From positions 1 through 45,523 of the forward strand of contig LXFE01001251.1 in assembly GCA_001929475.1 (NCBI GenBank): DNA of 45,523 nt. Direction: 5' to 3'. The translations under genes and the position numbers were made by a program. Position 1 is the first letter of the stretch, and every line of letters starts with the position of its first letter. Origin of the DNA: Neolecta irregularis DAH-3. Lineage: Eukaryota. Positions 1,617 through 43,614 of this stretch are shown here, in pieces. The notes under the pieces were generated by a model. That model was given only the letters and a program-made list of their open reading frames with translations. It had not been told where the DNA came from and did not search any database.

Positions 1617-3992
1617 CTATTGCCGGCGTCCACTGGGTATCTGCAAAAGAAAATCTACGAGTGAATACAACTCTTTCAAGAGACATACCTTCTGCCGCTT
1701 TCTTCTGGGCAGGCCTAGAACCAGGTCTCGTCCTCGCCGCTTCATGATTTCTCAATTCATCAGGAACTTTACTAATACTACTCTTTGAAAGCATCAATCT
1801 CAAATCAAAAAAGGTATCTTGGTCGTCATTTGTAAGCAAGGTGATCGCCACACCGGATTTTCCTGCACGGCCCGTTCTACCGATTCGATGAGTATAATCT
1901 TCGATATTTTTGGCCATGTTGTAATTTACGACAAGGGAGACATCAGAGACGTCGATACCGCGTCCAGCTAGATCCGTAGCGACGAGGATATCAGCGTTAC
2001 CCGCTCGTAATTGAGAAAGAGCAGCTTCTCTTTGATCTTGGGATTTTCCTCCGTGTAGGGTAACGGCTCGCCAGCCGAGGTTGCTTAGAACTTTGGCGAG
2101 ACCGTCGCAGTTTCGTTTAATGTTTACAAAAATTATTATAGGGGCAGCGAATTCATTCGAATTGAGCATTTCTTCAAGACGTTTCCTGGACGATATCAGT
2201 TTTTGGTAAAGAGTATTGCATACTTTTTCTTATCCTCGGGGACAAATTCTACTCGTTGTTCAACTGTATCGACTGCTTGTCCAGCATTTCCAATAGTAAC
2301 GATTGCAGGTCTACGTAAATACTTTCTCGCCAACCTCTCCAAACTATTCGGCATCTACAATTAACAAGGGAGAAACAAAGGGATGAATACGGTAGCACTA
2401 AACATGACAGTTTGTCGATAGCGTTCCTTGCCACCAATCCATTTACTCATTTTCACAGGATTTTCTGCATCTTCGGTATCCGGTTTTTGATTTTGAACAG
2501 GCAAGGCTTCAAGGATACCCTGCACCGCCTCTTCAAATCCCAAATCGATCATACGATCAGCTTCATCCAAAACGACATACGCGCATTGATTTAAAACTAG
2601 TACCCGACGTTCAAGACAATCGATAAGTCTACCGGGAGTGGCAATAACTATTTCGGCGCCTTCGCGGAGATTATAAGCCTGTTCTTCGATCGTGTGACCG
2701 CCGACTATACTAACACATTTAAACCCTACCGGTTTCGCAAATTTATTCGCTTCGAGTTCGATTTGTTGCGCTAGTTCACGGGTAGGCACAAGGGCTATTG
2801 CGTACGGTCCATTCGTCTTGTTAAAATCGTCTAGTGGAGGCATTTCCATGATATAAGACAACATTGGCAGGACAAATGCCGCTGTTTTACCAGATCCGGT
2901 TTCAGCTATACCGATTATATCTCGAAGGGCAAGACCGATTGGGATTGCGGCCCGTTGAATGGGAGAGGGTTCTTTATATCCTACTTTTGCTATTAATTCC
3001 ATTATTGTTTTAGGTAAATTCGATTCTTTCCAGTTTCGAATAGGGTTAGGTATACCACCACCTCTAGATTAGCCATCTCAACATGAGAAAAGAACACCTT
3101 TAGTCACAATACTGAAATCTTCTTTAAATATCCGCCAATCGCGTTCTTTCATTTGATCCAAGGGTTTCTCAAACCAAGGACGATCCTGCCAATCGACCTT
3201 GGCAGCTCTCCGTTGCTCCAATTCCATCAACCGTCTTCAAAATGAATATAAAAGAATAAACATGGATATACCTCGTTCGTTCTTGGTCTTGGCCATCTTT
3301 AACAAGTTCCGCAACATATGCAGTTCTATTCTTGTGTAAATCAACATCATCGAATCCAGCCAATTTTCCTCTGCCGTAAAATTGGGCGTCGTGACGGTTG
3401 GCGTAGAGTGGGTTGATATCAGTTGACGTATCATCTTGTACATCCCAATCGAAATTGAACTTTTTATCATTAATTTTGCGTTTCTTCTTCTTGGGTTGTT
3501 CCAAGCCGAGGTATTTATCCTGGGATTAATAGATATAATTTGACATGGTACTTTGAGGGCTTTTGCTTCTTCTTGTTCCATTGTACGGGGTTCTCCTTTT
3601 GGCAGCTCTTTAGGAGGGGGAGGGGGAGGTGGCGGCATATCGGGTCTAGTTCTTCCCGGTCTTTTATTTCTCATAGATGATGGTCCAGTGGGTGGACCTC
3701 GTGTGCGAGGACCCGTAGGAATAACACCTTCCATAGCCTCAGTAGTATGGGCAAGAAACTCTTGGAAGAGTTTCTTGCCATTTTCTTGTTTTTCTCGTTC
3801 TAGTTTGACTTTTTGGGATCGCCGTTCGAGAGCTAGAGCAGCTCTCTCTTGTTTTGACAAAAATTTGGGTTTTGAATTTGCAGCTTCCTCTTCTTTTTTC
3901 TTCTTGATTAGTTCTTCTAGGGATGGTATTGTTCTGCTGGACGGGGGTTGGGGGAGTGGAGGAGATTTTGGTGGAGGTGGGATGGCATTCAT
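1617..3992 (-). CDS. PRP28: Pre-mRNA splicing DEAD-box helicase Prp28/DDX23 (multi-exon)
   Basis: KPKFLSK N-terminus, [46 protein letters not shown]. Last exon is ambiguous (see findings). Confidence 0.95.
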
Positions 3993-4091
3993 GGTGTTGG
4001 TTGAACAATGACCTGTGTTCACATGCAGTAATTTTTGACAACTATAGAAAGATGTTTCTAAAGTTATTTGTTTCCAAAATTGTAGATAGCG

Positions 4092-4199
4092 GGGTTGAAT
4101 TTGCAGTTTCTTCTTTTTTCTTCTGGTTAGTTCTTTGAGGGATGTGATCGTTCTGCTGGGCAAGGGGGAGTGGAGGGGAATCTGGGGAGGTGGGATGGC
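4092..4199 (-). repeat. Degenerate duplicate of the PRP28 5' coding end (source about 3867-3986)
   Basis: Aligns by eye: GAATTTGCAG..TTCTTTTTTCTTCT..TTAGTTCTT..AGGGATG..GTTCTGCTGG..GGGGGAGTGGAGG..GGAGGTGGGATGGC in both places. The copy has indels and lacks the ATG. Confidence 0.8.
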
Positions 4200-4257
4200 T
4201 GACCGAGTAATACAATAATACAGTCTTAACTATAAAAGACGGTTCTAAGATTTGAAA

Positions 4258-5153
4258 TTAGGTATCACGAGGTTCATATGCAGGTAGATAAAGCTCTTCT
4301 TCAGCAGGTACGGTTATATCTGGGGGTCTAGTAGAACTGGAAGGGTCAAGGGGAGCACTAGCTCTTGAACGGAGGTCAGCTTGTTGTGGGATGGATGGTT
4401 TTCTAGGATCAATTTGGGAGAGAATGTCGAAATCGTCTGGGTTTGCTGGAACTGAAGGTTGCACGGGGTGACATTGTCCTGGTGGGCAGGGAGGGGCAGA
4501 AGGGAGGAGAGCTTGTTGCGCAGCGACGAGTTGGGCTTTTGTGTCCGGTTGGGGCGGTTGTATGGGAGAAGGTTGTATGTGGGCAGTGTCTGGTGTGACT
4601 GGAATGTCTGGTGAGTCTGGCATGTGGGGAGTGACTGGATTGGTAACCGGATTCTGGGAATTCCTTAAACTGTCGACGGTTCCGACGACGACTTCAAAGA
4701 GAAAAGTGTGGACGCCGCGTTCTCGCCGAAGACGGTCAGTGTCGAGGGTGCAGTGGTCGTCGCCAGGGGTGTCTGACTGGTCTCCTGCAGGTTTCCTGAT
4801 GTCTGACTGGTCTATGGTAGTTTTCCCGGAGAGGTCGACTACGATCTCGCAAAAGTAGCTGAAGGAGGCCAGGGGGGCGTTTGCAATGGTGGGAAAGACG
4901 TCAGCGGGGAGCCTGATGCGCGGGGTGGCGGAGAAGTCGAGGGATTTTGGGTCTATGAAGAGGGGGACGACGACCTGGGCGAGGTCCTTTCTGTAGGACT
5001 GGCGGGTGCTGGGGTTAGGCTGGGGGGGTGGCGGAGGAGGAGCGTACCCCTTTGCGTGTATTCTGGAGAGGCGGTAGAGGGTGACGATGATGCCGCGGAG
5101 GTTCTTGAGCGGCCTGGCGTGGGAGATGTGGACGCAGATGGCGAGGGCGTCGC
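4258..5153 (-). CDS. RIM8: pH-signalling arrestin PalF/Rim8, 3' part only (5' part lost in the assembly gap)
   Basis: Manual translation across one intron: GDALAICVHISHARPLKNLRGIIVTLYR..SYRKDLAQVVVPLFIDP..RLPADVFPTI..FSYFCEIVVDL..LDTDRLRRERGV..FEVVVGTVDS..EELYLPAYE. These blocks match my recollection of the PalF arrestin C-domain and its C-terminal LPxY motif. Confidence 0.85.
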
Positions 5154-5192
5154 CTGGCGGTTAGGGCGGGGGGCTTTGGGGGGGGATCTGGG

Positions 5193-5202
5193 NNNNNNNN
5201 NN
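5193..5202. other. Scaffold gap (10 N); true size must be larger
   Basis: Run of N. The 5' part of palF/RIM8 is absent on both sides. Confidence 0.95.
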
Positions 5203-5557
5203 AACTGCTGACTGGTGGGTACTGGTATGGTATACTGCTGACTGGTGGGTACTGGTATAGTATGCTGCTGTACTGGTGAGTACTGGTATAGTATGCTGCT
5301 ATCCTGGTGGGTACTGGTATAGTATACTGCTGTACTGGTGAGTACTGGTATAGTATGCTGCTGTACTGGTTGGTACTGGTATAGTATGCTGCTATCCTGG
5401 TGGGTACTGGTATAGTATACTGCTGACTGGTGGGTACTGGTATAGTATGCTGATGTACTGGTGGGCACCGATATAGTATGCTGCTGTGCTGGTGGGTACT
5501 AGTATAGTATGCTGCTGTACTGGTGAGTACTGCTGTACTGCTCTCCTGGTGGGTACC
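5203..5557 (+). repeat. Minisatellite with a 30-31 bp unit, at least 10 copies, truncated by the gap
   Basis: Consensus CTGGTGGGTACTGGTATAGTATGCTGCTGTA repeated head to tail with recurring variants and no spacers. Confidence 0.97.
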
Positions 5558-5597
5558 GGGTAGAGGTGTCAGGCTGGCCGCCCCCGCACTCCACCAA

Positions 5598-7369
<1,772 letters not shown>

Positions 7370-7469: not shown

Positions 7470-8016
7470 TCATTTGTGTTCTTCTTGATCTTTGCGTTTT
7501 ATATCGTTACGTGAACGAGCCGCGAATGGTGTTGATCTTTTCGCCTCAGGATGTCCAGATTGTTTCATCCAAGCTTGAGATTCCTTTTCAATATCCAGAA
7601 TTACTGCAAAATCAGCCCAAAGTCGAACCCACCCAAAACGTACATTCTTCCCAACTTTTTTCACTTTCTGGATTTCCTGTTCCTAATTCCTTTTTCAAAT
7701 CGACTTTTTGCCCGGTTTGTATGCGTTGAATAACATCTTTTAATATCTCAATCTTGCACTTTGACCAAACCAAATATTCGGAATAAGATTGTTTTATATG
7801 TAATAAATGGATAGCTTGTGACCCGAATATAAGCCACAGAAATAAAAGCGTGGTATTGGAATTAAATAGCCATTTCGTTTTATTGCTGGTAGATTGAACT
7901 GGAGAAAAAGAGTCTGGTGATGATGAGGATAGCAAACGGGATGACAACCGTGAGGTGATTTTGAAATTGAGGCTTTTGGAAATTAGGAAGCGAGGGAATA
8001 TATGTGACATAAACAT
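7470..8016 (-). CDS. Small predicted mitochondrial membrane protein, DUF5321-like (2 exons)
   Basis: Presequence-like N-terminus, one hydrophobic segment, and IFGSQAIHL..KIEILKDVIQRIQTGQKVDLKKELGTGNPESEKSWEE. A GTACGT..TGCAG intron joins it to the 7470-7664 frame. Confidence 0.7.
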
Positions 8017-8123
8017 TTGTCGTTCGTTAAAAGTAGAGGAAAAACACGTTTGTTGAACGGATTTGAAAAGGGGGTGGGAGATTGGTATAAATTTTCAACA
8101 CCTTGTAATTATCACATTTCACA

Positions 8124-9349
8124 ATGAAAACTATGCATGACTCGTATAATGACGAAAAACAGCCTTGTATCGTAGGAAAAGTCGATCGGTCATCGTTAGA
8201 ACAAAAATTTGGAACGCGGTATCTTGTTGATATCGAAAAGGCATTTGAATATAATGCTTGGTATTTTCCTGTTTTATCAACAATTTTCTGATAATAAGGG
8301 ACCACATCGATTGGGGAGATGAACATGAGGAGTATGCTAAAGAATGTATTGCACGGCAAAAGAAAGCTCCTGTACAGCCTCATGATCGAGGTATTACGAT
8401 ATTCTACGATAAAGAGTTTGCTAAACCCCAACAAGAACAGGTGATGAAAGATCCAGCTGGGTTTTGGAACACTTTCTACTCCAACTGTACGAATACATTT
8501 TTCAAAGATCGACATTGGATTCAGAGGGAGTTTCCGGAATTATTGGAATGTACAACTGAAACAGTGAATATAATATTTGTGATGATTTAATGGCTAGGCT
8601 GGACGAAAGTATATCGTAGAAGTCGGGTGTGGAGCAGGAAATACCATGTTTCCGCTACTCAGTGCGAATCGAAACGACAGACTTGTCGTGCACGGAGTAG
8701 ATTTTTCAAGTGTTGCAGTAGATGTTGTACGGTCGAATGAGCTATTTGCAAAACATGCAGCCAACGCCCGAGCGAGTGTATGGGATCTTGCAGACCTAGA
8801 TGGAAAGCTCCCAGCGGGAGTGGAAGAGAACAGCGTAGACGTCGTCATCCTGATCTTTGTATTTAGTGCGCTGGTGGGTACATGGGCGTGCGTGTATGCT
8901 GACAATAAAGGCACCAGAACAGTGGAGACAGGCAGTCGACAATGTGTCTAGGGTATGAAGAAGGGTTGATACCGGCCAACCTGGACAGATGCTTCGGGCG
9001 GGAGGGGTTGTGCTGTTCCGGGACTATGGCCGGCTGGACATGACACAGCTGCGGTTCAAGGACCAGAGGCTGCTCGACGACAATTTCTACATGCGCGGGG
9101 ACAAGACGCGGGTGTATTTCTTTGACGCGGGCAAGACGGGAGGGCGAGACACGGCTGACACGGACAGGCGAGGTTGCAGGGGCTTTTGGACGGCGATTTG
9201 GGATTGTGCAGAACACTGTAGACCGGCGGCTGCTGGTGAACCGCAAGCGGGGGCTGAAGATGTACCGGGCGTGGGTGCAGGGCAAGTTTGCGAAAACACG
9301 CGGGGCGGCCGGGGGCGAGGGCCCGGACGGAGAAGGGAGGGGTTTCTGA
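8124..9349 (+). CDS. TRM140: tRNA m3C32 methyltransferase (Trm140/METTL2 family)
   Basis: [91 protein letters not shown]. Confidence 0.92.
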
Positions 9350-9429
9350 GGCGGGGAAGCGCGGCGGCGGAGAGCGTATGGGCCGCGAACACCAACCTTT
9401 AAAGCTCGCCCTGCCGCCGCTGCCGAGTG

Positions 9430-10999
9430 ATGGCTTTGCTTGTGTCTGCACCGGCCAAGTGCATCCTTTTTGGCGAACATGCAGTTGTGCATGGCACTGT
9501 ATGCGCTGCCGCGGCTGGACTGACGCGCCCAGAGTGCGATTGCGGCATCCATCTCGCTGCGTGCGTACCTGCTTGTCGCTGCCCGCCCGCCCGGCAGTGC
9601 GGTGCAGCTGCTGGTGCCTGATCTTGGCCTGAATCTGGCCTGGCCGGTGGATTCTCTGCCCTGGAGCCAGGTGCCTGTCGCGCGCGGGTTGGCCGCTGTT
9701 GCAGCGGGTAGTAGTGGTGGTGCCAGTAAACCTACTACTGCGGGTAGTAGTAGTGCCAGTAAACCTACTCTTGCGGCCAGTAGTAGTGGTGCCAGTAAAC
9801 CTACTACTGCGGGTAGTACAACTACTACTACGGCCTGCAAACCTACTACTGCGGGTAGTACAACTACTACTGCGGCCAGTACAACTACTGCTAAGGCGAG
9901 CACAGCACCGTCCGCTGTTCCGTCCGCGCTACACCCGCCGCTGGTCCGCGCCCTCGAATCTCTGCTCGCCGGTACCGATCCCAACCACTTCTCGACCGCC
10001 TTTGCCTTTCTCTATCTCTACCTGCATCTCGCATCCCGCTCGAGCCCCGCCGCTTTCCTCGTCCGCTCAACCATCCCGCTCGGTGCCGGCCTCGGATCCA
10101 GCGCCGCCTTCAGCGTCTGTCTCGCCGCCGCCTTGCTCTTTGCAAATGGCCATATCGCCCGACCCTGCACTGGTCCGCCCTCTCCAGCCGCCCGCATCCT
10201 CATCGACGAATGGGCCTTCCTCGGCGAGTGCTGCCTCCACGGAAACCCCAGCGGCATCGACAACGCCATCTGCACTGCCGGCGGAGCGATCCTCTTCAAA
10301 AAAGGCGCTTCAGGGGAGAAGCCCCGCAAGACCTTCATCCCAGAGTATCCTAACCCCTAACTCCTAAACCTAATCCTCAAGCTTTCCCTCAATCCCCCTC
10401 ATCCTCACAAATACCTTCCAGTCACGCCAAACCGCAAAACTCGTCGCCAAGGTCGCTGCCTTGCGCGACTCCCATCCCTCAGTCGTTGCCCCGGTCTTCA
10501 ACGCCATCGATGCCACTGTAACCCAGGCTTACCAGCTCCTGACAACCTCGCAGACTGATTTGACCGCAGATCGCACCTCCTGGACCGCAAGACTCGGTCA
10601 ATTGATAGACATCAACCATGGCCTCCTAGTCTCTCTCGGCGTAAGCCACCCCAAGCTCGAGAAGGTTAAAGAGGTCGCCCATAAAGGAAATGTCGGTTGG
10701 ACAAAACTGACTGGTGCCGGTGGTGGTGGTTGTGCTATTACAGTGCTCCGAGATGGTAAGATCCACATCTATTTTCACTGACCCCTTGAGGCGTCACGAG
10801 AGAGGCCCTGCGAGTACTAGAAGGGAAATTTTTAATTGAGGGTTTCGAAATGTTTGAGGTTGTGCTCGGTGACAAGGGCGTTGCCGTTCATGGTGCATAC
10901 ACACCAATCACCGAAGCAGCCTTCCTTGGGGCAAAAACACATAAAGATCTTCTCGCACTACTCAGTACAGAACACGTAAGGGGTTGGGAATATTGGTGA
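9430..10999 (+). CDS. ERG12: Mevalonate kinase
   Basis: SAPAKCILFGEHAVVHG, STIPLGAGLGSSAA (GHMP ATP loop), HGNPSGIDN, LGVSHPKLE, KLTGAGGGGC. Confidence 0.96.
9704..9892 (+). repeat. Imperfect minisatellite (about 33-42 bp units) inside ERG12
   Basis: Units like GCGGGTAGTAGT(GGT)GGTGCCAGTAAACCTACTACT, 4-5 copies, all length changes in multiples of 3. Reads AGSSGGASKPTT / AGSSSASKPTL / AASSSGASKPTT / AGSTTTTTACKPTT. Confidence 0.93.
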
Positions 11000-11138: not shown

Positions 11139-12300
11139 ATGGATGACCAAGAAGAATATGTACTGGTTTGGGTGTCCGTTGCTAACTTGTAGAAACCCTT
11201 GAATTTCACAGACGGATCTTGGGACGACATCATTCCCATTCCTCAGGAAGATGACCCGCATTCCATCGCCGAAATTGCCTATACCCAAGAATACAAACAA
11301 GGAATGTCATATTTGCGAGCGATCATGGAGAAGGAAGAGTTTAGCGACCGAGCATTGGACTTGACTGAGTATATTATCGCTATGAATCCGGCACATTATA
11401 CTGTATGGTAAACAAGGTCCGTCAATATATCCCGCTCATGCAAACAGGGCTTATAGAGCAAACATTCTTTTCGCTTCGAACGAAGATCTCCGGGATGAAC
11501 TGAAATATATTGAACCTTGGGCTGAGCGCTTTTCAAAAAATTATCAAATATGGTAACTCCAATTCAAGTCGAGACCTAATAACAGGCATCACCGGCAGAC
11601 TATTATTAAAAATCTCAGAGATCCCTCTGGTGAATTGGGCTTTACAGCTACAATTCTCAAAAAAGATCCCAAGAATTATCACATTTGGACATACAGGTCT
11701 CGCGAAGGTCTGTTGAGTATCTACTGATATACAGGCAATGGGTTATTCAGGAATTCAGCCTATGGGAAGACGAGCTTGAGTTTATCGAGAAACTACTGGA
11801 AGAGGATGTGAGAAATAACTCTGCCTGGAACCATCGGTTCTATACCACTTTCTTTCGACAAGATAAACTACCGGAGAATGCTATAATTCAGCGGGAGATT
11901 GAGTAGCTCTATATCCTTTCGATTGCTAATCGATAGTTATGCCAAAGCCTCAATACCTATTGCACCACAGAATCCTTGTCCATGGAACTATCTAAGGGGG
12001 TACCTATTATTTCTCGCATTCAGCTTATGTTTCAGGATATTTGAAAAGACCGGTACTCCGCTAACCGAACTGGAATCTCTATGTCGTCCTTACGTTCCCG
12101 AAGATAACGGACAAGAGTGCCTGGTTTCGCCACAGGCTATGGATTTGTATGCCGATATATGCGTCATTCAAAAGAATATACAGAAAGCGCAACTCATCTA
12201 TGACTTACTTGCACGTCTGTACGACCCTATTCGCGAAAATTATTGGAAATACAAAAAAAGTCAGTTGACTAAAGTCGACTCGGCTGCTGAGGCTGTTTAA
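11139..12300 (+). CDS. RAM2: Protein farnesyltransferase/geranylgeranyltransferase-I alpha subunit
   Basis: WDDIIPIPQEDD, YLRAIM..EFSDRALDLT, NPAHYTVWAYR, KNYQIWHHR, KNYHIWTYRQW, DVRNNSAWNHR, PQNPCPWNYLRG, YDPIRENYW (PPTA repeats). Confidence 0.95.
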
Positions 12301-12512: not shown

Positions 12513-12640
12513 ATCCTTGTGCTAGGGTTTTAAGCGTGACGTTGAAGGGCAACCTGAGTCCGTTTTATTGCTGATTGAAAACTATTTCATGACCGCTCGC
12601 CGTATCCTTCGGGATATGGTGGAATCTTTGGAAAAACCTA
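12513..12640 (+). ncRNA. U4 spliceosomal snRNA
   Basis: 5' AUCCUUGUGCUAGGG is complementary to the conserved U6 stem-II sequence. Kink-turn stem-loop GAC-GUU-GA-AGG-GCAA-CCU-GA-GUC. Conserved UUAUUGCUGAUUGAAAACU (stem I). 3' hairpin CCGUAUCC-UUCG-GGAUAUGG followed by Sm-like AAUCUUUGG. 3' end approximate. Confidence 0.9.
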
Positions 12641-12836
12641 TTTTGTTCATTTTACAGTCGTTGGGGCCGTACGCGGTTCTGGGGTCTGTAAAGGACAGGG
12701 CAGTTTTTTAAATAAATTTCATTCCAACATACAATTACGTAGCCGCGTGTTACACCTGAGATATTTGTTTTATCTGATTTTTTGGATTATTTAACCCACG
12801 CACCATTCCTTACCGTCTTTGAACATAATCTCTTGA

Positions 12837-15800: not shown

Positions 15801-16541
15801 TGATCAAATCGCAGCTGGAACAAACTGCATATTATTCAGCACCTCTGCGGTTTTCAGATCATCGTCCTGTGTATGCATTATTCACTGCAACAATTACGAA
15901 AATCGACGAGGATATACGAGAACAACTGGCCAAAGAATTATATAATATGCGGAAAACAAAGGTAGGAGATGATCCTGCCTTAAAGCAACCGAAAAAGCCA
16001 AAGCCGCCTCCTCCAAAATCGCGAAACGCATCGTCAGCGCGAGCTGAAACTTTTTCACTAGCCCCTACAGGGGATCGTAAGCCATCATTATTTGACAAGA
16101 GTCTCAGTTGCAGTTATATCATTCAAGCCGGGTCTTCCCCCCAAGCCTAGGTTAATCCCAATCCAATATAATGTGCCAGCAATGGAATCAGAACCTGACT
16201 CACCAGCAAAAAATACCGTCGATACAGACCGCCGGGATAGGAATTTGCCAAAGCAACACGCAAATCCCCCTCCACGACCCTCAAGGCGTTCTGCTACAAT
16301 ACAGGAGGCTGGTGAATCACGTCCAGTCCAATCGCTTCAAAGACCGAATACAGTAATTTCAGAGAGGGACAAACAACAAGCAAGGATAGAATCCGCGGAG
16401 CGCGAAAATAAACAGGATCAGCCGAACACCGATGAAAGAAGAGCACCGCCACTTCCCCCGCGGATCGGCCGTTCTAAAGCGAAGTTTGGAGAGAAGCTAA
16501 AATGTCAGACTGATCTGGCACTACTAGAGTCGAATGATTAG
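12837..16541 (+). CDS. Synaptojanin-like polyphosphoinositide phosphatase (Sac1 + 5-phosphatase; Inp52/Inp53/Syj1 family)
   Basis: [49 protein letters not shown] (CX5R), [62 protein letters not shown], Pro-rich tail. Confidence 0.95.
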
Positions 16542-18142: not shown

Positions 18143-20517
<2,375 letters not shown>

Positions 20518-20584
20518 GCTATCATAATTTTGTTGGATTGGTCAATAAGTATTACTGTGATTTGTTCGTTTGTATTAATTGAAA

Positions 20585-20640: not shown

Positions 20641-20668
20641 CTTTTCGATTAATTCTAAAACAGTGATT

Positions 20669-20692: not shown

Positions 20693-20721
20693 AAACTAGC
20701 ATCAGGAAAATACATTCTAGC

Positions 20722-28696: not shown

Positions 28697-28814
28697 GATC
28701 CAGAGATGAAGAGATGAAGGGGCTCGGTTAGGAGGGGGCGTTGGGAGGACGGGCGCGTAGATCCCAACCCGGCCCAAACCGGAAAGGCGGACCCCTATTC
28801 AATCTCAATCGTCT

Positions 28815-29190
28815 ATGCTGCGACACTTCTTTCCTGGCAGGGGAATGAGAAGACTGCCGCTGCTGAAGCCATATCTCAGTGTTCAAATACGCTATGATTC
28901 TACAGTACCCGCCGGAGAAAACCGTCATGTAAGGAGTTCCAGCCTATGCACCGGCACTGACTAGAGACCGGCTTCTATGCTCAGTACGGTTATGCAACCG
29001 GCAAAGTTCTCCTGATATCTATGATTACCTACGCAAGTCTCGAATATGCTTGGTACTACTTGGAGCTAGAAGAGCTGAAAAGAGAAAAGACAGGTATGGG
29101 TTTTCGACATTAAACAATCTGAGCCTAGGAGTGGAAATTGCAGAGCTGGAGAGGGCCGTCGCTAGATTCACAACAGCCGCCAACAGCTAA
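28815..29190 (+). CDS. Small mitochondrial inner-membrane protein, INA17-like (3 exons; absent from the ORF track)
   Basis: MLRHFFPGRGMRRLPLLKPYLSVQIRYDSTVPAGENRH / TGFYAQYGYATGKVLLISMITYASLEYAWYYLELEELKREKT / GVEIAELERAVARFTTAANS-stop. Presequence, one TM segment, coiled coil; donors GTAAGG and GTATGG. Family assignment is from memory. Confidence 0.72.
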
Positions 29191-29399
29191 TCAATATACT
29201 CTGTCTCTTCAGATGGTAGCATCATAATTTAGAGATTTTGGGAAAAGCAACTCGAATCTTACACGGTGTGCATGAGTTGTCAAAGAGGAGTCACCATGAG
29301 ATAGCAGAATGATGTAGTTAAGTGAGAAAAGCGCGAGATCTTTTCATTGAGGTTTTGATTGGATTAAATAGATTTTTGATTCGAGTGTTACCTATATAA

Positions 29400-29734
29400 G
29401 GGTGCGTTTGGTGCGCGCCAAATTTCATAGAATGTGGCTTTTAAAAATTTCAAATTTTTGGGCGCGCGTTTGGTGCGCTCCACATTTTATAAAATTTGTC
29501 CCCGCAGGTTTGGGGCAACGCCACAATACGCCACATTTAAGGAGGATCCTCACCAAACGCGCGCTTAAAATTCAAATTTTTTATAAAATGTGGTGCGCAC
29601 CAAACGCGCGCTGATAATATGAATTTTTTAAAAAGCCACGTTTATAAAATGTGGAGCGCACCAAACGCACGCCTGAATTCGAATTTTAATAAAAAACCAC
29701 ATTTCATGAAATTTGGTACGCACCAAACGCACCC
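29400..29734. mobile_element. MITE with PIF/Harbinger (Tourist)-like terminal inverted repeats
   Basis: 335 bp, non-coding. Starts GGGTGCGTTTGGTGCG and ends CGCACCAAACGCACCC, with about 90 bp imperfect TIRs. The GCGTTTGGTG core occurs twice on the left and four times inverted on the right. Left flank TAA, right flank TTG, so no clean TSD. Confidence 0.8.
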
Positions 29735-29835
29735 TTGGCAATCGATCTTCAATTACCCAAACCCAACTTATATCACTTATCCCTCTTATGGGTATTGTGC
29801 GCCGTTAGTCCTAATTTCGTCACACATGCAGCAAA

Positions 29836-32800
29836 ATGCAAGAGTATCATATCGACAGCGGAGACGTCAATATAGTTGATGGCGAGATCTTGCAAAAGCT
29901 TATTAGAAAAAGTCTCAACAATGTACCCAATTTTGATAGCGAACGACCAACAAAGAGGGCAAAACTTCAGGAAATTGGCGCCGATCGCAGTATCAGTATT
30001 CCGATCCTCAAGGGAACATGTCTCTTCGATCTTGGGCCATGCGGTGATCTCCTAGAGCCCTTTAATGACTGCTTCACAAGTTCCAAAGAACAATACCTTT
30101 TGGCTTCTCAACTTCGATTTAAGACCATTAATTCAGAGAAATACGTTCAATTCCTTTACAATGACGAGCCAAGTAACCATTGCACTGCCATAGCCGCAAT
30201 TCAAGTTAAGATTAGCGACTCTACCCACAGTAGATTCCTGCATTCGATGTGTTTCCGTTACAGCACATCCAAAAGAGCTTTCCAGGATCTCGTGAATATG
30301 ACCTCAGAGCCATATTTATATCGTTCCGGTAGTCGATTTTATATCAGATGCATCTTTAATTTTACGATGAATCGGGTCACTGAGTGGACGACCCAAGTGT
30401 TCGCAATGAGTCAGGAGAGGTATAGCGTGCGATTATTAGAGGCCGCATTCCCTGTCCGCAATGCTACGGACGCTATCACCTCGAGGTCTTTTTATGACTG
30501 TCTGGATCGAGAGCTGGATATCTTCAATTTGATTGATCAACCAGTTGAATTGGAAGGAACATTGTTGCCTTTTCAAAGGCGTACTCTCAGCTGGATGTGG
30601 CAACGTGAACATCCCTTGGAGAAATCGAATTCCCTACCTTTGTTGTTTGAGAAAGTGGAGAATCAAGACGGCGAAGAGTTGTATCTCTCGAGGCCATTGG
30701 GATTGGTTCAGAGAGACATTGAATCTGCACAAGCTTTGATGCCAACTATTCGTGGAGGAATACTTGCGGAAGTATGTTAATTTTTCGATCTTCAAGATAT
30801 TGAATCTAAAGGAAATGGGTCTCGGGAAAACGGTTGAAATGATCAGTCTAATCCTGAAACATAAATTCCAACTTTCCGATGTCATTTTTGAAGATGATCT
30901 TGAACATATCAAAACAACTTTGATAATCACTCCATCATCTATACTTCAGCAATGGATTGAAGAACTACGTAAATTCGCTCCTCACTTGAAAGTCTATCAG
31001 TATGTCATTCACCCTTCATGTTGTCGTTGACGGACAAGCTATTGTGGTGTAAATCACCCGACAACGATCGATGAGAATTACGGAAAGTACGATGTGGTTT
31101 TAACAACATACCAAGTTCTCAGGTGGGATGATCTCTATTCTCTACTGAGTCCCCTCTAGTTGTGAATTTTATCACGCAGGAGTAAATCCACCCAGAAGTC
31201 TACGATATGACAAACAGTACATTCATAAGGTTTCTCCTCTCGTTCAATATGTTTGGTGGAGGATATGCCTTGATGAAGCGCAGATGATTGATTCTGGAGT
31301 CAGTAAGGCAGCAGGTTCTTTCTGACCCGGTTACATTTGCTTACCTCTTAGCTGTCGCAGCTCAATTACGCAGAATTAATGCTTGGGCGGTCACTGGAAC
31401 ACCTATTAAGAACGGTCTCGTGGATCTGTATGGCCTTTTGATTTTCCTTCGTTTCACACCGTTGTCTCAAGCACCATTCCAGTGGTTCCGATTAATCCAA
31501 TTGCCTTCTTGTCAATCCCTTTTTAAACCCCTTTTTCGTGAACTAACCTGTCGACATACACTGAATTCTGTAAAAAGCGAAATGCTTCTCCCGCCATATA
31601 CTCGAGTTCTCTTTCAGCTAGACTTGACCGTGGCAGAAGATGAATACTATCGTCACCTCTTTCGACAAATGCTTGATTTCATAGGACTCACAGAACAACT
31701 GACTCCAATTTACTCGGATTGGTCGCTCCAGCAAGAGACTGAAAAAATGAGGAAGTGGTTAGTTCGATTGAGACAAATATGCGTCCATCCAAGAGTTGGT
31801 CAAGCCAATCGAACTTTGATGAAGGAGGCAAGACCATTACAAACCGTCGAGGCCGTCGTTGATACAATGATCGAACAATGTCTCACAGCTTTGTGGAGAA
31901 ATCAACGCCATTTCCTATCAAACAAGATTAAGAGGGGACAGTTATATGAGCAAGTGGGAGATAAGGAGAGCGCATTACACACATGGAATGATGTATCGGA
32001 GCTTGTCAAAGTCATCATTGAACCACTACGCCGAGAGGGCAGGGATATGCTTGAGGAGAAGAGCTGGCTTGTTGACATGAATGATGTCGAAAAGAGCGAA
32101 GATAAAACAGTTCATGAAACAGAAAAGCTTGAACGCTTCAAGAAAGCTGAGACACTCCAAACGAAAATAACTGCCCTTAATAAAAGGCTTCGCATCTGGC
32201 TGGAATTCGAACATAGAGTATTTTCGTTGTTGTTCCCTAGTTGACCGTTAAGGCATTATTCTTCATTGCTAGTGTTCATTTTGCGCAAGGAAATACGGAA
32301 CAAGAGAACATATTTTATGAGAAAGCAGAGATTGTACGGCATGAGGTATTTCAGTCCTTCGATGCAATATTGACCAATGAGATTCTTAAAGAATCTGAAG
32401 CCAATGCAATGCGACTTATGAAAGAACTCCGAATTCGCGCTGAAAAAAAAGACTTTGTTATCATACCTGAAATATCGGACGTGACCTCTACTGGAAGTGG
32501 TGTTTTCGAGCGCATCCAGTTAGTTGGCAGAATTCTCAATGAACAAGCACTTCAACTCGATAAGTGGCGTCAGATAATAATTGATTTCCTCACAAGCAAG
32601 ATTGTGGATAACGACACTACACCAGATGGCGAGGAATATACAGAAGGTCTTGACGCACAAGGGGAGTGTACGTCCTATCTTGAGGCATTTCGCAGATCCC
32701 TCATGGACCGAACATTTTTGATTCTGAATACGCAAAGTTCGCTTCAAGAATATGAACATTACCATCGCCACATGGAGGTAGTTACTGAGCTTGATAATGA

Positions 32801-34402
32801 GCTCAGAAAAGTACGGAAGTCATTTCTGGATATTCCTCCAGCTACAAAAATTGTTGATCAAGAACCGGTTGATACGCTAAAGAATTTGGATGATACTTTG
32901 AAAGATTTGTTTGAAGCAGATCTAAAAGCTGAAGAGCTTGAGATGATTTGGAAGGAACGAGCTCGATTGGACGACGTAAAAAAAAGGCAGACCAAAGCCT
33001 GTAGAAGCCTAGAGAAGTAGGGGAGATAACTTTCAGTTCTTATCTAACATTGGAAGGGAGTACGAAACAATGAGGTCTCTACTAAATTCGAGAATCGAAT
33101 ATTTTCGTCAACTGCAGCAGATAAGCGACTCTGTTGTTCAGTATACTGTTGAAGAACCAGACATGGAAATTAATCGGTTGCTTGATGAAGAAGCCATTGA
33201 ACTTGCCAAAATCGAGCAGGCTGAATCTCGCTATCGATATTTGGTCAATTTGAAGGCTGAGGAAACTAGTGATCAGTTCCTGCTACAAAAGCCTACTACG
33301 TGTATTATTTGCACGGACACATTCGATGTCGGAGCAATTACAATCTGCGGTCACATCTTTTGCGACGACTGTCTGAAACGATGGTATAAAAGTCATCGCC
33401 GATGCCCATCATGCAAGGTATTTTTGACTGTTCTCGCGATGATGGGCTAACTTCTTGGACTGTCATCGATAGCAACGACTTCCGGATGATTGGGTTCCAA
33501 AAAAAGGGCAATTATTTGTCACTTGATGCAATCAACCCTGCATCGCAAACGATTTCCTCCTATGGTTTTTACATGAATGCGAACCAAGAGCTGGTGCAGG
33601 AGGTTCGAAAGATTGATCTCAAAGGTTCTTTCGGCACAAAGATTGATTTTATAACACGCCATTTAATGGTCCGTCGTATTGTAATTTGCCTGGATAACAT
33701 GATTAGTATCTACAGCAGAAAAAACCAGAGGAAAAGTCGGTGGTATTCTCCCAGTGGGTGGATGTTTTAGAAATCCTACAAACAGCGCTGAGTACAAACG
33801 GTGTGAAATGTATTCGGTTTGATAACAAAACTGTGAAACGACGGAGCACCTATGATCCGGCATCTAAATTCAAGGCAGATCCCGAGGTACTACGCTATGA
33901 GAAGAATTGCACTAAGTTCAGATCCGAGTGTTCATGTTACATTCTAGAACACAATCGTATTATTACCTGAAAATCCATTTTTAATTTCTTTTAGGTCTGG
34001 CTTGACCTTGGTCAATGCTAGGAATGTGTTTTTATGTGAACCTTTGTTACAATCTTCAATCGAAGCGCAAGCTATTTCACGAGTTCATCGCATGGGTCAA
34101 AAACATAAAGTATATGTTAATAATATAGCAGTCACGCTAATAAGTAGATAAATGTATTCCTGTACACGATCAGAGGGACTGTCGAAGAACGAATACATGA
34201 ACGAGCAATGCATAAACGTGCAGAGCACGAACAAATCAATCAGAACCATGCAAGAATGCCTTCTGGGGCTGACGGAGTTGATGAGACCACAGAAATGCAG
34301 CAGAATGTTGCGAGTCTTGTCAGTACACTGAAATATGGAGGAGGGGAAATTGTCGAGGATAAAGACTTACCAATATGTCTTTTTGGGAAATGCTTGGAAT
34401 AG
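29836..34402 (+). CDS. SNF2-family helicase with C3HC4 RING finger (SHPRH/Irc20-like E3 ligase)
   Basis: [107 protein letters not shown]. Confidence 0.92.
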
Positions 34403-38814: not shown

Positions 38815-40659
38815 CTATTAACTGTTAGATTGTAAAATCGGGAAGTGAAGTACATATAAATACTCTGCGCGGAGACGAAAATGGTCTTGCAATTGCCGAG
38901 GATCTAGGACGAGCAAGAGAAGCCTGTTATGCAGGGATCGGGGAAGCGAGCGCCGCTAAGTCAGCCTCACAAAAGATCTTCTCGGCATCAGTGTACTGTG
39001 TGACTAGGCAAAAGTACACCGGGCACTTCCCGCACTTTGGCCTTTGACGAAATGACTAACATCTGCTTTGTTCAGGTTGCCCTAAGAAGTTATCTAATCA
39101 CTAGTGAAAATTCTAGCAATCTTTTCCGCTCGAAAAGCAGATATCGATGATTCTGTCGAAAATTGAGTTCCAAAAAATTGTCTCCAGAATGACGGAATTT
39201 AGCCATTTGAATTCAATCTTGTCTGCTACTTTGATTGCGGCATGAGTGTTGCACGAATTCCCATGCATCACTAGAGAGTCTGATAGGAAGGAATTCTCTG
39301 TAGAGCCATCTATCAAGTGCGACAGCGCCGTACTCTTGGATTGGTAAAACAGGTGTTAAATGACAGCACCCATAGCCAAGACTTTGATAATTCTTTTTTT
39401 AACTTTGAATATTAGCTAGTAGGAATTGAAAGGAATTATGCGCACCCAGTCATACAATTAAAGCTTGCTATGGAACAACTAAAGTAGTATGGTTGATTTG
39501 TGACATGGCTCCAAAGGGTCGCAGTCCTTCTCGGAGGAAGGTTGTCCCCAAACTCGCAAGGAACTTTCGTTTCATCATTTACCCAATCAGTTCTGAACAC
39601 TTGAAATCAACAAGAACTTTTATAGTACTGAGTCATATATATATATTCTGAAAAGACGCTTGGCCTTTCTGTGACTCTTTTGTGGTCGCGTACGAAAAGC
39701 AGCAGAAACTTCATTGCTGACTCATCCCGAGCTGTCATGTGTGTTTCAAAACGCGCTGCAGAAGGTACGCAATGCTAGCAGATGATCAGCGGCCTGGACT
39801 GCAGGCTAATTGTTTCTAAGAAATTGAGAAATAAGTGGAACCTACCAAGAGAAAGGCTGGTAGCAGACTATATGGTCAATTCCGAGGAAGAAAATTGAGA
39901 TGGTTGCGCAGGGGCACACGATTAGAATAAGGCTGCAGTGGTTGCCAAGAACTGGGAAACTGAATGATTCAAAAGCACAGATGGAGAATGTTTGTAGGGT
40001 AGCAAGCATCCTAGTTCAAAAATTTGGAGTTTTCAATTTTGTAGACTCCTTTGTTTACTCGATTCATTACACTTTCAATGGATGGCATTTCCTAATGTAC
40101 GAGTCTTACGATTGGCTGGGTATCTAGCTGCGGACAAATTTCGACAAGCCCATTAAAGCCACACGAAGCCACCCCTAGGAGGAAGGGCGGTCTCGTTCTT
40201 GGTCACAAGACCCTCCCTTTCTGTGGGACGCGTGCTGAAGAAGCGCTAGGTGGTCTGAAGCATCTTCTTTGGCGATCATGGTGTTTCCGTGGATATCTGA
40301 TTAGAACACTAGCCATCACGACCATATAAAACGAATGTCGACGCAGAGTCACGCGGAAGCAGATGCACCCACCAGATGGCGGTTCTCAAACTACCTACTT
40401 CCAGATCCGGCGCGTCGGGTCATGTGGAGTGTGCATACACAGCACAAAGCGCGTTGCAGCGGCTGTCTATAGCGTGGGTGGGTGCCGCGACGCTCGCAGG
40501 CAACGCGCGTGCGCCAAGCGATGGAGGAGCTGATATCCGCATGCGCCGCTGACGTAGCCCTGCAGCGCCGTGATTGGGGCAGAGTCAATGGCGCCTTGCG
40601 TGGCGCAGGCCCATAAGAAGCCGGCGCCTCCCCCGCACGCAGGAGTTTCCTCCCTCACC

Positions 40660-41043
40660 ATGACCAACCCCATCGACATTCCCACCCCCGCAAAAGCAAC
40701 TCCCATCCTGCCCTCGCCTCCACCGTCGCGCCGCCCGTCGGCGACGCTCTTCGGGTCTGCGTCCTGCCGCGACCGGCGCCTGTCGAACCCGCTGCTGCCC
40801 GACCAGCTGGGCAAGCTCGGCCGCAGGCTCAGCCTGGGCATGGGCGTGGGCCGCCCGCCCAGCCCGCCGCTCAGTCCCGCCAACCAGCGTGAGTTCTTCC
40901 TCTGGCTGCGAGACATTTCCGGCTGATGCGCGCCTCCAGTCCCCGCCTTTGACAAGAAACGCCTCTTTGCCGAAGCAAGCAGCCAGCGCGCGGCCTCGCC
41001 CATGGGCGAGCGCATTCTCCAAGGCCAGTTCTCGTTTGATTGA
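40660..41043 (+). CDS. Small uncharacterised Pro/Ser-rich protein (about 110 aa, 2 exons)
   Basis: ATG 40660; canonical intron 40889-40939 (GTGAGT..GCTGAT..CCAG); three RRxS motifs; ends RAASPMGERILQGQFSFD-stop. Confidence 0.7.
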
Positions 41044-41912
41044 TTAAATGCCCCTGTTTTGATGTCCCCCGCGTTTCCCAGCATCGTTATGCTAGTCTCA
41101 TCCGCAAGCAAGGTCCTGCGTGTGGCCGGTCTGCAGGGAATATGTTTGCTAAATAACAAGATTTGCCCTCTATTTGTAGCCTCTCGTGTAAATATGAAGC
41201 GCCTGCTTGATGTATGTCTTCGACTTCTCCAATACCTGTCCTGCTCCATCGATGGAGTTTCACCATCCGTACACATGCACCCGCTAGAAAACGCTAAATG
41301 AAAACTGTGCCTCTAAAATAGAAGTCCTCTTATCTCGTGGGACTAATGCTGGATTGGCCCCCCGGCCAAACTATGTACTTATCCATGCTGTGGGAAAAGG
41401 TAATTCTGCTACGCCGTAATGGATATTCTTGGGTGGCACGCGCTTATACCTGATTATACATATGAAACGTTTTCATGTTTCGGGCCTTCTGCCACACATG
41501 CTCAAATATAGGGTAGAATCACATATGCTACATTCTACGGGAAGCACTTCCAACGCCACTGAAAGTAAACCCAATTATATTCGAGATGATCAAAATATTG
41601 ATTTGCGAGAGACTGTCAACCAACCCTACAAGTTACAACTTTTATGACATGTTGGAGAAAGTTCAAAAGTAGTATATTTAAAACAGGTTTGGATGGATTG
41701 GTTTTGTTGCAGGCGAGAAGCATCTTGAATAGAGATTCCAGCCTTCTAGATAGCCTCCACGATAACAGCAAATTAATCAAATCGAGTCAAAAAAGGCGGA
41801 TAAATCAAAATCTTGAAAGGATACACAATTGTTGCAAGGATACAATGCCGGATGACAAAACTGTTTCCGAGTAGTTGAATTAAGCAGCTTGTAACAACCT
41901 CCAAAATTGCGC

Positions 41913-43614
41913 ATGTCTAAACGACCAACAAAATCCTCTTCAGACCAAATATCAGACCCATCAACACCCTCAAAACGTCAGAAATTTGAGACAAATGGGG
42001 TTGATGAAGTTCAGGCAGAGGACAACGTCTTGGAATTCTCCCCAGAAAAAGAAATCGTTCCCCCGAATGACAATTTGTATCTCGATACTGTACCAGCCGT
42101 ATCTATTGTTGAAAATAACAGTTAGATTGATCGGACCATGCTCGATTTTGATTTCGAGAAGCTCTGTTCTGTCTCATTATCCAATTTGAATGTCTACGCT
42201 TGTCTAGTCTGCGGAAAATACTACCAAGGTACTTTTCTGCGTAGCCTAAAGTCTAAACTATCGAGGTCGCGGTCAGTCATCTCATGCATACTTTCATAGT
42301 CTTCATGAAGATCACCATGTTTACATCAATTTGGCATCTTTAAAAGTTTACATTTTACCCGATGGCTACGAAGTGAAATCGGCTACGCTAAGCGACATAA
42401 AATACGTCGTTAACCCTACGTATAGCAAAGAGAAGGTCTCACGATTGGACAAGCAGCCAATTGTTGCTTACGATCTGACGAACAAAAAATACCTGCCTGG
42501 TAAGTAAGCCTGGGTGAGTCTTCTGATGAACTAGGGTTTGTTGGGTTGAATAACATTAAACAGAACGATTATTTGAATGTTGTGATTCAAGCGCTCACTA
42601 GAGTTACCCCACTACGCAACTTTTGCATGCTTGAAGATCTTTCATCGAGGTCAGAACTCGGTAATATCCAACTTGGATCTGCAGTTACTCACTGTACAGT
42701 GCAAAGATTTGCCGTCTTAATCCGCAAGCTATGGAACCCCAAATCTTTCAAAGCACATGTTTCTCCTCACGAGCTTCTTCAAGAAATCAGTGCCACATCA
42801 AACAAAAAATTCAAGCTTACAGAACAATCCGATCCGCTGGATTTCCTTGCGTGGTTTCTAAATAAGATTCACATAGATCTTGGTGGATCTAGGACGAAGC
42901 CGGGAACGAGCATTATCCACAAAGTCTTTCAAGGAAAAGTGAGAATGCAGACCCAGACTGTAAAAGTCTTAAACGAAGGAGACCGAGCTCGATTTGAGGG
43001 CCGACAAGTTACGGAGCAGATTATTCCGTTTCTGTTTCTAACATTAGAACTCCCCCCTCCGCCGTTATTCCAAGACGAAATGGAGAAAAATATTATCCCG
43101 CAGGTATAAGCTTTTTTTCAAAGATCCCGTTGCCGATTCACAGGTCGCTCTCTCAACCATCCTACAAAAGTATGATGGAGTCACAATCCAAGAACTCTCT
43201 GGCCAGCGAAAACGGTTCAAGATTAGCCAACTTTCACCTTTTCTGATCCTTCACATCAAAAGGTTTACAAAGAACAATTTCTTTGCGGAAAAAAATCCCA
43301 CGATTGTCAATTTTCCAATCAAGAACCTCGATATGGGACCATGTAATACTCTTTCAAGGGCCATCAAATAATCAATAGACGCGGAAGGCACACCGGAGAA
43401 CCAATCAACATTATATGATCTTGTCGCAAATATCACTCACGAGTCAGTAACAACACCCACAGGAGGCGAAAAGCATGTCTTCCGAGTCCAGGTACGAGAC
43501 AAGAGCAGAGATGAATGGATGCAAATCCAGGATCTCTATGTCGAAGAAATTCGAAAGGAAATGATTTTCTTGGGCGAGAGTTATGTACAAATTTGGGAGC
43601 GCCAAAAGCTATAA
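41913..43614 (+). CDS. SAD1: U4/U6.U5 tri-snRNP protein Sad1/USP39 (ZnF-UBP + inactive USP domain)
   Basis: LYLDTIDRTMLDFDFEKLCSVSLSNLNVYACLVCGKYYQGRG, GFVGLNNIKQNDYLN (catalytic Cys replaced by Asp), FKAHVSPHELLQ, EKNPTIVNFP, YVQIWER. Confidence 0.96.

Follow-up and report, generated by a model that had tools for sequence, protein, structure and literature searches.

Short introns with weak splice signals and two candidate GT-GG introns in a 45-kb contig of Neolecta irregularis

Introduction

How is the end of an intron found when the sequence around it carries little information? The question is raised by contig LXFE01001251.1 of Neolecta irregularis DAH-3 (GenBank assembly GCA_001929475.1), of which positions 1–45,523 of the forward strand, 45,523 nucleotides (nt) in all, form the window analysed here. 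The window is fungal nuclear DNA with many very short introns. Splice-site choice is usually ascribed to sequence recognition, by U1 and U6 at the donor and by U2AF and second-step contacts at the AG. An interpretation of this window from its letters, made without database searches (the sequence-only reading), had proposed instead a spliceosome that depends on intron length and on a ruler measuring from the branch point to the 3' splice site.

Here, we show the positions of these introns, the statistics of their signals, the AG dinucleotides that are passed over and nine RNA joints. The observation of short introns with weak splice signals was confirmed, apart from a reading-frame claim made for an INA17-like gene, and the interpretation as a splice code set by a ruler was partly supported. 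We think it likely that these are ordinary U2-type introns, at the short extreme for a fungus, whose 3' ends are chosen by a branch-anchored search for the first AG behind a short exclusion zone and not by a fixed ruler.

Placement of the introns

A total of 88 introns were modelled, 54 of which are independently supported: 37 by ranking against homolog profiles, nine by spliced transcript contigs and eight by continuity of Pfam coordinates. The others rest on protein motifs only (seven), annotation only (three), prediction only (23), or are uncertain (one). Statistics refer to the 54 supported introns unless all 88 are stated, and some counts were made on 53.

Most host genes were named from Pfam matches or homologs: a PRP28-like helicase, a germinal-centre-type protein kinase, a mevalonate-kinase-like gene and a prenyltransferase alpha subunit; a synaptojanin-like phosphoinositide phosphatase, an aminotransferase-V gene, an SLC12-like transporter and an SHPRH-like SNF2/RING helicase; and an ORC1/Cdc6-type AAA ATPase, a Zn2Cys6 transcription factor and a USP39/Sad1-like protein. 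A further gene we take to encode a GFA1-like aminotransferase. The detailed survey of odd junctions covered the genes lying outside 4258–5600 (-), 7470–8540 (-), 8950–9430 (+), 16600–18100 and 38830–41900.

In four intron-rich genes, splice signals were not used to place introns. Profile hidden Markov models were built from homologs of other species, exon blocks were found by searching all stop-to-stop segments, and every frame-compatible, stop-free intron with any terminal dinucleotides was ordered by the profile score of the spliced product. At all 15 junctions of the PRP28 and SLC12 genes used for calibration, a GT-AG solution lay at most 3.8 bits from the best among 259–518 candidates, so homology alone fixes junctions nearly to the base. 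Pfam continuity means profile positions abutting across the intron (Pkinase 60(+2)/63, 125/127 and 161/163; zf-UBP 21/23) or restored PPTA repeats.

Run X2 is listed as DNA yet carries spliced contigs and behaves as a transcriptome. Nine introns were confirmed among its joints listed (15 of 53), all of them GT-AG, 35–52 nt long and located in the GFA1-like and aminotransferase-V genes. These nine joints match modelled introns, except that the gene finder had set one GFA1 3' end 3 nt downstream; three more X2 contig pieces begin or stop at modelled introns. The X1 contigs, with a word depth of about 400, have the same letters as the assembly over 13460–16391 and 29638–33459, and may come from the same reads as the assembly. 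The 23 prediction-only introns were proposed by a gene finder trained on validated introns and were excluded from the supported statistics. A naive gene finder using GT-AG and codon bias fused genes and made spurious long introns, and was discarded.

Length and splice-site composition

Supported introns measure 32–52 nt with a median of 38 nt, and 50 of the 54 are no longer than 41 nt; all 88 modelled introns fall between 31 and 52 nt. The range of 33–50 nt claimed by the sequence-only reading therefore holds well, with 52 of 54 supported and 84 of 88 modelled introns inside it. Length is divisible by three in 19 of 85 introns.

The termini of the supported introns are GT-AG in 50 cases, GC-AG in two and GT-GG in two; among all 88, the donor is GT in 85 and GC in three, and 86 end in AG. 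Beyond its first two bases the donor is poorly defined (A at +3 in 43, T at +4 in 30, G at +5 in 14 and T at +6 in 27 of 54), with an information content of 0.91, 0.43, -0.04 and 0.19 bits at +3 to +6, about 1.5 bits in sum. G at +5 occurs in one of the nine RNA-confirmed introns and a GTA(A/T)GT donor in only 3/53. In eight of 53 introns, a GT hexamer no more than 20 nt away matches the usual consensus better and is left unused. The clearest case is in the SHPRH-like gene at 31315–31351 (+; 37 nt, ending in TAG), where GTTCTT at 31315 is used and GTAAGG 12 nt upstream is not; the homology margin is 16 bits (154.1 vs 138.0), and an X2 RNA piece starting at 31350 is compatible only with the GTTCTT donor. 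All the degenerate donors named by the sequence-only reading were located: GTCCTT at 6581, GTTTTT at 15575, GTCCGT at 33669, GTCTCG at 11697, GTCACC at 6170 and GTTCTT at 31315. Five of these six have profile or Pfam support; the exception is GTCCTT, a putative donor placed by a kinase motif only.

Acceptors are TAG in 20 introns, CAG in 18, AAG in 10, GAG in four and TGG in two. AAG and GAG are thus common, as had been claimed, and together make 26% of acceptors non-YAG (Y, pyrimidine); position -3 carries about 0.2 bits. As YAG closes all nine RNA-confirmed introns among the joints listed, the AAG and GAG calls rest on homology and Pfam continuity.

A branch signal is retained. The best motif resembling YTRAY (R, purine) places its A 6–9 nt from the last intron base in 41/54 introns and 6–12 nt from it in 49/54. 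Strict CTRAY occurs at 6–12 nt in 16/53, whereas shuffling the intron interiors 1000 times gave 1.9 on average and never more than 7, so the enrichment is real. YTRAY is found at this distance in 24/53 (shuffle mean 5.1) and YTNAY (N, any base) in 41/53. Of the earlier statement that the acceptor lies 6–9 nt past the A of CTRAY, the spacing stands and the strict motif does not, as the motif in use is looser.

Taken together, the GT or GC donors, AG ends, enrichment of YTRAY-like branch motifs and precise removal in 9/9 listed joints are those of U2-type introns. U12-type introns are marked by an extended donor RTATCCTT and a TCCTTAAC branch site. A U12-type reading of the GTATCC donors was rejected, as none of the 88 introns has the donor RTATCCTT and the three GTATCC donors continue with AT, AC and TA.

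Choice of the 3' splice site

Below, a number with a plus sign counts bases past the branch A, and introns are given by donor, branch motif with its distance to the intron end, and acceptor. Six of the 54 introns pass over an AG at +3 to +5, and none passes over an AG at +6 or beyond. In the PRP28-like gene, 3062–3097 (-; 36 nt, GTGTTC, CTAAT+7, GAG) skips a TAG at +5. Two synaptojanin-like introns skip an AAG at +4, namely 15206–15239 (+; 34 nt, GTAAGC, ATAAC+6, GAG) and 15575–15611 (+; 37 nt, donor GTTTTT, TAG; the sole solution, with profile support). The intron at 21600–21637 (-; 38 nt, GTATGG, TTCAT+8, TAG) skips a TAG at +5 and has an exact, positionally unambiguous RNA joint. The SLC12-like intron 27499–27535 (-; 37 nt, GTGTCA, TTGAC+6, TAG; profile 119.8 vs 114.0 bits) skips a CAG at +3, and the SHPRH-like intron 34110–34147 (+; 38 nt, GTATAT, CTAAT+7, TAG; profile) an AAG at +4.

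Three introns had been singled out earlier as cases in which the reading frame demands GAG over a nearer AG. For the PRP28-like intron, which has annotated-model and profile support, this proved correct: it is the sole GT-AG solution of realistic length and ties the best score among 330 frame-compatible solutions, its single GT-AG alternative is 21 nt long and 10 bits lower, and the deposited model and homologs agree on the product. At the profile-supported phosphatase intron 15206–15239, GAG is required among GT donors, being the sole choice that keeps the conserved K/TGLKG; alternatives that combine a GC donor with AAG exist, 6.6–9.6 bits lower. The frame argument failed for the INA17-like intron 28929–28966 (+; 38 nt, GTAAGG, CTGAC+6, GAG; prediction only), where donor 28924, 5 nt upstream, paired with the TAG at 28964 preserves the frame with an intron of 41 nt.

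In 52 of the 52 supported introns that end in AG, the AG used is the first one at least 6 nt from a plausible branch A. This is the behaviour of a first-AG search with an exclusion zone, and the two GT-GG introns lie outside the rule. Such a search, with an exclusion zone of 5 nt, accounts for the data without recourse to a ruler, and only the two GT-GG introns need something more.

A ruler would set the 3' cut by a branch distance of about 6–8 nt together with intron length, with AG merely preferred and GG used productively. Several observations speak for it: weak donor and acceptor information, bounded lengths, skipped AGs at +3 to +5 and, above all, the two GT-GG introns ending at +6 and +8, which were placed by homology. 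On the other hand, AG closes 52/54 supported introns and the branch-to-end spacing ranges from 6 to 16 nt, and the top-scoring motifs of two RNA-confirmed introns are found at +15 and +16. Moreover, GG at +6 is passed over in 3/3 introns in which an AG follows within the next 5 nt (at +8 to +11), each supported by profile: 13681–13720 in the synaptojanin-like gene (+; 40 nt, GTGCAT, GAG), 25367–25412 in the SLC12-like gene (-; 46 nt, GTTAGT, CTAAC+11, CAG) and 33017–33056 in the SHPRH-like gene (+; 40 nt, GTAGGG, CTAAC+9, AAG). The proposal of a spliceosome guided by length and ruler rather than by site sequence therefore keeps its premises of weak sites, bounded lengths and skipped AGs, while its AG independence and fixed distance are not supported. 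It survives only through the two GG introns, and we regard it as a rather unlikely account, roughly a one-in-four prospect.

The favoured explanation, a branch-anchored search for the first AG, would work as follows. Introns would most likely be recognised across the intron. The 5' site would consist of little beyond GT, A at +3 and, more weakly, T at +4, and a loose YTNAY motif near the 3' end would mark the branch. The 3' site would be the earliest AG to occur 6 nt or more past the branch adenosine, with any base tolerated at -3, and AGs at +3 to +5 would be passed over because they probably lie too near the branch to reach the catalytic centre. Signals this weak would allow GC donors of poor consensus to be tolerated, and probably an occasional GG acceptor too, if it is used productively.

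Several points weigh against this explanation. For 3/54 introns, a weaker motif further upstream must be assumed to be the branch, the top-scoring one being at +4 or +5. Branch points were assigned from motifs rather than mapped, and the sample is one 45-kb contig. The RNA-confirmed set (9/54, among the joints listed) includes 0 of the 14 AAG or GAG introns and 0 of the 4 non-canonical ones. Finally, the next AG lies at +26 for the GT-GG intron 15431–15465 and at +22 for 33418–33458, out of frame in both cases, and the in-frame AG for the latter would give an 89-nt intron; a pure first-AG rule thus predicts broken messages at both.

Introns without GT-AG ends

Two introns ending in TGG had been suspected from the letters, and both were recovered from homology. 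In the synaptojanin-like gene, 15431–15465 (+; 35 nt) starts with a perfect GTAAGT, continues to CTGAT and ends in TGG six bases past the branch A. This solution ranks top of 2197 frame-compatible ones and exceeds the best GT-AG solution, which is that of the deposited model, by 25.6 bits; no GT-AG or GC-AG solution was found near the homology anchors. Its TGG end alone joins segments at consecutive profile positions, just before a conserved WLGDFNYR block. In the SHPRH-like gene, 33418–33458 (+; 41 nt) has GTATTT, CTAAC and TGG at +8, and scores 122.2 bits vs 105.4 bits for the in-frame 89-nt GT-AG intron ending at 33506, a gap of 16.8 bits. The X1 contig letters are identical to the assembly at both sites and at 15014–15048. 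Strong homology thus argues for both candidate GT-GG introns.

The same two introns speak for a ruler. Each combines a good donor and strict CTRAY with a typical length and a modal spacing, both sites retain the final G and differ only at -2, and the genes carrying them are otherwise intact across all exons. Their rate, 2/54, is far above the 0.041% of a hand-curated fungal annotation (binomial P = 2.4e-4). Neither, however, is among the X2 joints listed (15 of 53), nor is that of 15014–15048; the stretch compared with X2 ended at 33459, one base past the second GT-GG intron, and did not take in 5902–5939 or 13363–13410. We tentatively entertain, as a possibility somewhat under one in three, a second step with no strict need for the A of AG, in which a branch tether of 6–8 nt would let GG ligate productively at introns whose 5' site is reduced to approximately GTA.

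Two supported introns are GC-AG, a rate that does not differ from the curated 1.85% (P = 0.26), and their donors have no compensating consensus. One is 15014–15048 in the synaptojanin-like gene (+; 35 nt, weak GCTTGG, TTGAC+8, TAG), which scores 31.8 bits over the annotated GT-AG alternative 15045–15088. The other, 5902–5939 in the kinase gene (+; 38 nt, weak GCATCC, CTGAC+8, CAG), is supported by exactly abutting Pkinase positions (60(+2)/63) within the catalytic core.

A third GC-AG candidate is uncertain. An in-frame TAA at 13400–13402 lies between two homologous synaptojanin-like blocks in the same frame, and a GT donor is impossible there. The candidate intron 13363–13410 (+; 48 nt, GCAAAG, TTAAC+8, CAG), which spans the TAA, scores 12 bits under non-canonical 39-nt solutions. 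An 87-nt GT-AG intron at 13324–13410 was ruled out because it removes a conserved block (105.4 vs 159.8 bits). The TAA could be a lesion or be read through, or it could lie in an intron, either a poor GC-AG one or a non-canonical one of 39 nt.

Could the GC and GG sites be lesions, that is, recent mutations that leave null or leaky alleles in dispensable genes or in a decaying synaptojanin-like copy, or else consensus errors? What remains of the pattern would then be simply that of a fungus with short introns. All five departures from GT-AG (at 5902, 13363, 15014, 15464 and 33457) amount to an A:T to G:C change, either T to C at donor +2 or A to G at acceptor -2, which could hint at a mutational or conversion bias that affects splice sites under weak constraint; one of the five falls in a GC-rich island. 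Three of the five lie in one gene holding 15/85 introns (hand hypergeometric estimate, about 0.04), and this synaptojanin-like gene also contains the TAA at 13400–13402 without a clean intron. Relatives of both GG-carrying genes are not known to be essential in yeasts. Yet the synaptojanin-like exons are open and match the homolog profile block by block (E-values 5.7e-4 to 3e-87), and on a rough estimate it is unlikely that splice dinucleotides would be hit three times while about 3 kb of exon stayed clear of frameshifts and nonsense changes. One GC-AG intron, moreover, sits within a conserved kinase catalytic core, and the X1 contigs, at a depth of about 400, have no variant letter over 13460–16391 and 29638–33459. 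Lesions are, in our judgement, an improbable explanation, at slightly under one chance in ten.

It might also be that the deposited models, which use GT-AG only, are correct and the homology-guided odd junctions wrong. In-frame annotated GT-AG alternatives do exist, at 15045–15088, 15398–15435 and 33384–33472. At the phosphatase sites, they swap homolog-matching segments for unrelated residues and score 31.8 and 25.6 bits lower, and 33384–33472 drops a RING finger that the homologs keep. Model P0121 (13552–16147) encodes 715 amino acids vs about 1000–1100 in relatives and starts inside an intron, and model P0241 (29836–34399) has half of the RING finger deleted. We give this reading almost no credence. 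Of four deposited protein models mapped, two are damaged precisely at introns without GT-AG ends; gene finders limited to GT-AG mis-model genes here, so proteomes of the genus may carry systematic errors.

Other introns of the window

The remaining supported introns are ordinary in their ends. In the PRP28-like gene (-), all agree with the annotated model and the profile: 3520–3551 (32 nt, GTACCA, TTAAT+6, CAG), 3235–3271 (37 nt, GTATAT, AAG), 2355–2390 (36 nt, GTATTC, TTAAT+6, TAG) and 2186–2223 (38 nt, GTATGC, CTGAT+10, CAG).

In the kinase gene (+), Pkinase positions abut across 6170–6202 (125/127; 33 nt, donor GTCACC, CTGAC+7, TAG) and 6313–6346 (161/163; 34 nt, GTACTT, CTAAC+7, CAG). At 6019–6060 (42 nt, GTATCT, CAG) the positions are 87/93 with three residues unaligned; this intron is in frame and stop-free, so its retention would add 14 residues and not break the kinase. 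An assembly gap of 10 N lies at 5193–5202, upstream of the kinase exons, and the 5' part of the kinase is outside the gene model.

The prenyltransferase-alpha gene (+) has 11408–11447 (40 nt, GTAAAC, CAG), the sole GT/GC-AG solution, which restores a PPTA repeat; 11553–11585 (33 nt, GTAACT, CTAAT+6, CAG), again the sole solution, with Pfam support; and 11697–11734 (38 nt, donor GTCTCG, CTGAT+7, CAG), also supported by Pfam, where the other solution is only 23 nt long. The zf-UBP positions 21/23 abut across 42229–42265 in the USP39/Sad1-like gene (+; 37 nt, GTACTT, GAG).

Profile-supported introns of the synaptojanin-like gene (+) are 13057–13097 (41 nt, GTATAA, TAG), 13550–13589 (40 nt, GTATGG, TTAAT+6, AAG; sole solution), 14244–14278 (35 nt, GTAAAT, AAG), 14590–14628 (39 nt, GTATTT, CTGAC+9, AAG), 14659–14699 (41 nt, GTAAAT, CAG), 14884–14919 (36 nt, GTATAA, AAG; sole solution) and 15777–15814 (38 nt, GTATGA, CTGAT+11, CAG). 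At 14511–14550 (40 nt, GTACTC, CTAAT+8, CAG; profile 120.3 vs 110.9 bits), an upstream CTAAC-CAG that would give a 28-nt intron is unused.

The RNA joints of X2 confirm, in the GFA1-like gene (+), 18552–18603 (52 nt, GTACGA, CTGAT+16, CAG), 18972–19009 (38 nt, GTATTC, TAG), 19507–19543 (37 nt, GTAACT, TAG), 19850–19884 (35 nt, GTATTT, TAG) and 20368–20406 (39 nt, GTACAT, CAG). On the minus strand, they confirm 20815–20850 in the aminotransferase-V gene (36 nt, GTATAT, TAG), as well as 21846–21886 (41 nt, GTGAAC, TAG) and 23017–23053 (37 nt, GTATAT, TAG). The GFA1-like and aminotransferase-V genes are convergent, and a single X2 contig of 4.6 kb spans both, so that the two transcripts or their 3' ends overlap or meet.

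The SLC12-like gene (-) contributes, by profile, 27396–27433 (38 nt, GTATCG, AAG), 27168–27210 (43 nt, GTAATA, CAG), 26638–26672 (35 nt, GTACGA, CTAAT+7, CAG), 26492–26530 (39 nt, GTATCT, TAG), 26237–26275 (39 nt, GTACCA, TAG), 26125–26163 (39 nt, GTATGT, TAG), 25655–25695 (41 nt, GTATCT, AAG) and 25155–25194 (40 nt, GTATAT, CAG; an X2 piece stops at 25153). The SHPRH-like gene (+) contributes, likewise by profile, 30772–30811 (40 nt, GTATGT, AAG; an X2 piece stops at the donor), 32218–32252 (35 nt, GTATTT, TTGAC+8, AAG; an X2 piece stops at 32217), 33669–33706 (38 nt, donor GTCCGT, TAG; 78.6 vs 71.7 bits), 33887–33921 (35 nt, GTACTA, CAG) and 33957–33994 (38 nt, GTATTA, TAG; sole solution).

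Neighbouring features

A full-length U4 spliceosomal RNA gene was found at 12513–12647 (+) (Rfam RF00015, 90.3 bits, model positions 1–138), between the prenyltransferase-alpha and synaptojanin-like genes; the naive gene finder had put false exons across it. At about 16590–17830 and 29390–29740, the X1 word depth climbs from about 400 to 900–2700, with many variant letters, indels and loose ends, and X1 joints connect 17757 to 29393. Both regions resemble copies of a dispersed repeat or mobile element on the flanks of gene-poor stretches.

GC content is 0.49–0.54 at 4–6 kb, 8–12 kb and 40–42 kb vs 0.41–0.45 in the rest of the window. The mevalonate-kinase-like exon 9533–10342 (+) has a long, repetitive insertion rich in Ser, Thr, Ala and Gly within a GC-rich island. 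The predicted intron that follows at 10345–10381 (+) consists mostly of degenerate CCCTAA-like, telomere-type repeats, the source of several CTAAC and CTAAT branch-like motifs.

Significance and comparison with known systems

An intron-dense fungus with about 1.5 bits at the donor and a branch point 6–12 nt from the end of the intron would reveal the extent to which a normal spliceosome can rely on length and geometry. Only the GG acceptors are potentially surprising: if real, they offer a testable natural exception to the AG rule, and GT-GG introns would be unusual if transcripts confirm them. Should GG prove to be tolerated through geometry, Neolecta, a relative of fission yeast, would become a natural system for separating geometry from base recognition in splice-site choice. 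The genus is phylogenetically important and its proteomes serve studies of fungal multicellularity, where errors in gene models would matter. No published account of Neolecta splice signals was found among the matches listed; the main text of the genome paper contains no occurrence of intron, splice, RNA-seq or transcriptome, and its supplement may hold intron statistics.

A scan that starts at the branch point and takes the first AG outside an adjacent exclusion zone is known from classical work on yeast and mammals, and in budding yeast the exclusion requires about 10 nt. The Neolecta introns share its logic, in that AGs below a minimal distance are disregarded and the first one past it is taken (52/52). 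They differ in an exclusion zone of only about 5 nt and in two introns that have no AG in reach.

Lineages with very short introns (Paramecium, the Bigelowiella nucleomorph and dicyemids) are reported to tend towards degenerate signals, with a donor of approximately GT(A) and no branch signature (PMC2483917). Like the Paramecium type, Neolecta has a narrow range of very short lengths, genes with numerous introns and a 5' site that amounts to about GT(A). In contrast to Paramecium-type introns of about 19–25 nt, the Neolecta introns are about 38 nt long and keep a branch motif, enriched at 6–12 nt from the end.

In Yarrowia lipolytica, about one base separates the branch point from the 3' site, CTAAC occurs in over 92% of introns, the donor is strong and introns are few (PMC2911113). 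Similar fixed 3' motifs are given for Giardia and Trichomonas in a consensus table (PMC2483917). Neolecta resembles Yarrowia and Giardia in a branch point very near the 3' site, with AG a few bases past the motif. Unlike these intron-poor, strong-consensus systems, with Trichomonas included, it has CTRAY in 16/53 introns, a near-informationless donor and a spacing of 6–16 nt; the near-invariant motif, near-fixed spacing and strong donor of a fused branch point and 3' site are thus not seen.

Hand-curated annotation of Ganoderma lingzhi includes GT-GG at 0.041% and GC-AG at 1.85%, both described there as validated minor classes (PMC11590231). GT-GG is commoner in the Neolecta sample, and its GC donors stand without a compensating consensus. 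As regards typical fungal introns, a branch site about 13–25 nt before the terminus is usual (PMC2483917, citing Kupfer et al. 2004) and the mean intron of Cryptococcus is 63 bp (PMC8476143). The introns described here have in common with these GT-AG ends, a CTRAY-like motif and the absence of a long polypyrimidine tract, but they are shorter (median 38 nt), their branch is closer (6–12 nt) and G at +5 is not conserved. Overall, the features are known ones and what is new is their combination, a near-informationless donor together with a retained, loose, 3'-anchored branch motif in an ascomycete dense in introns.

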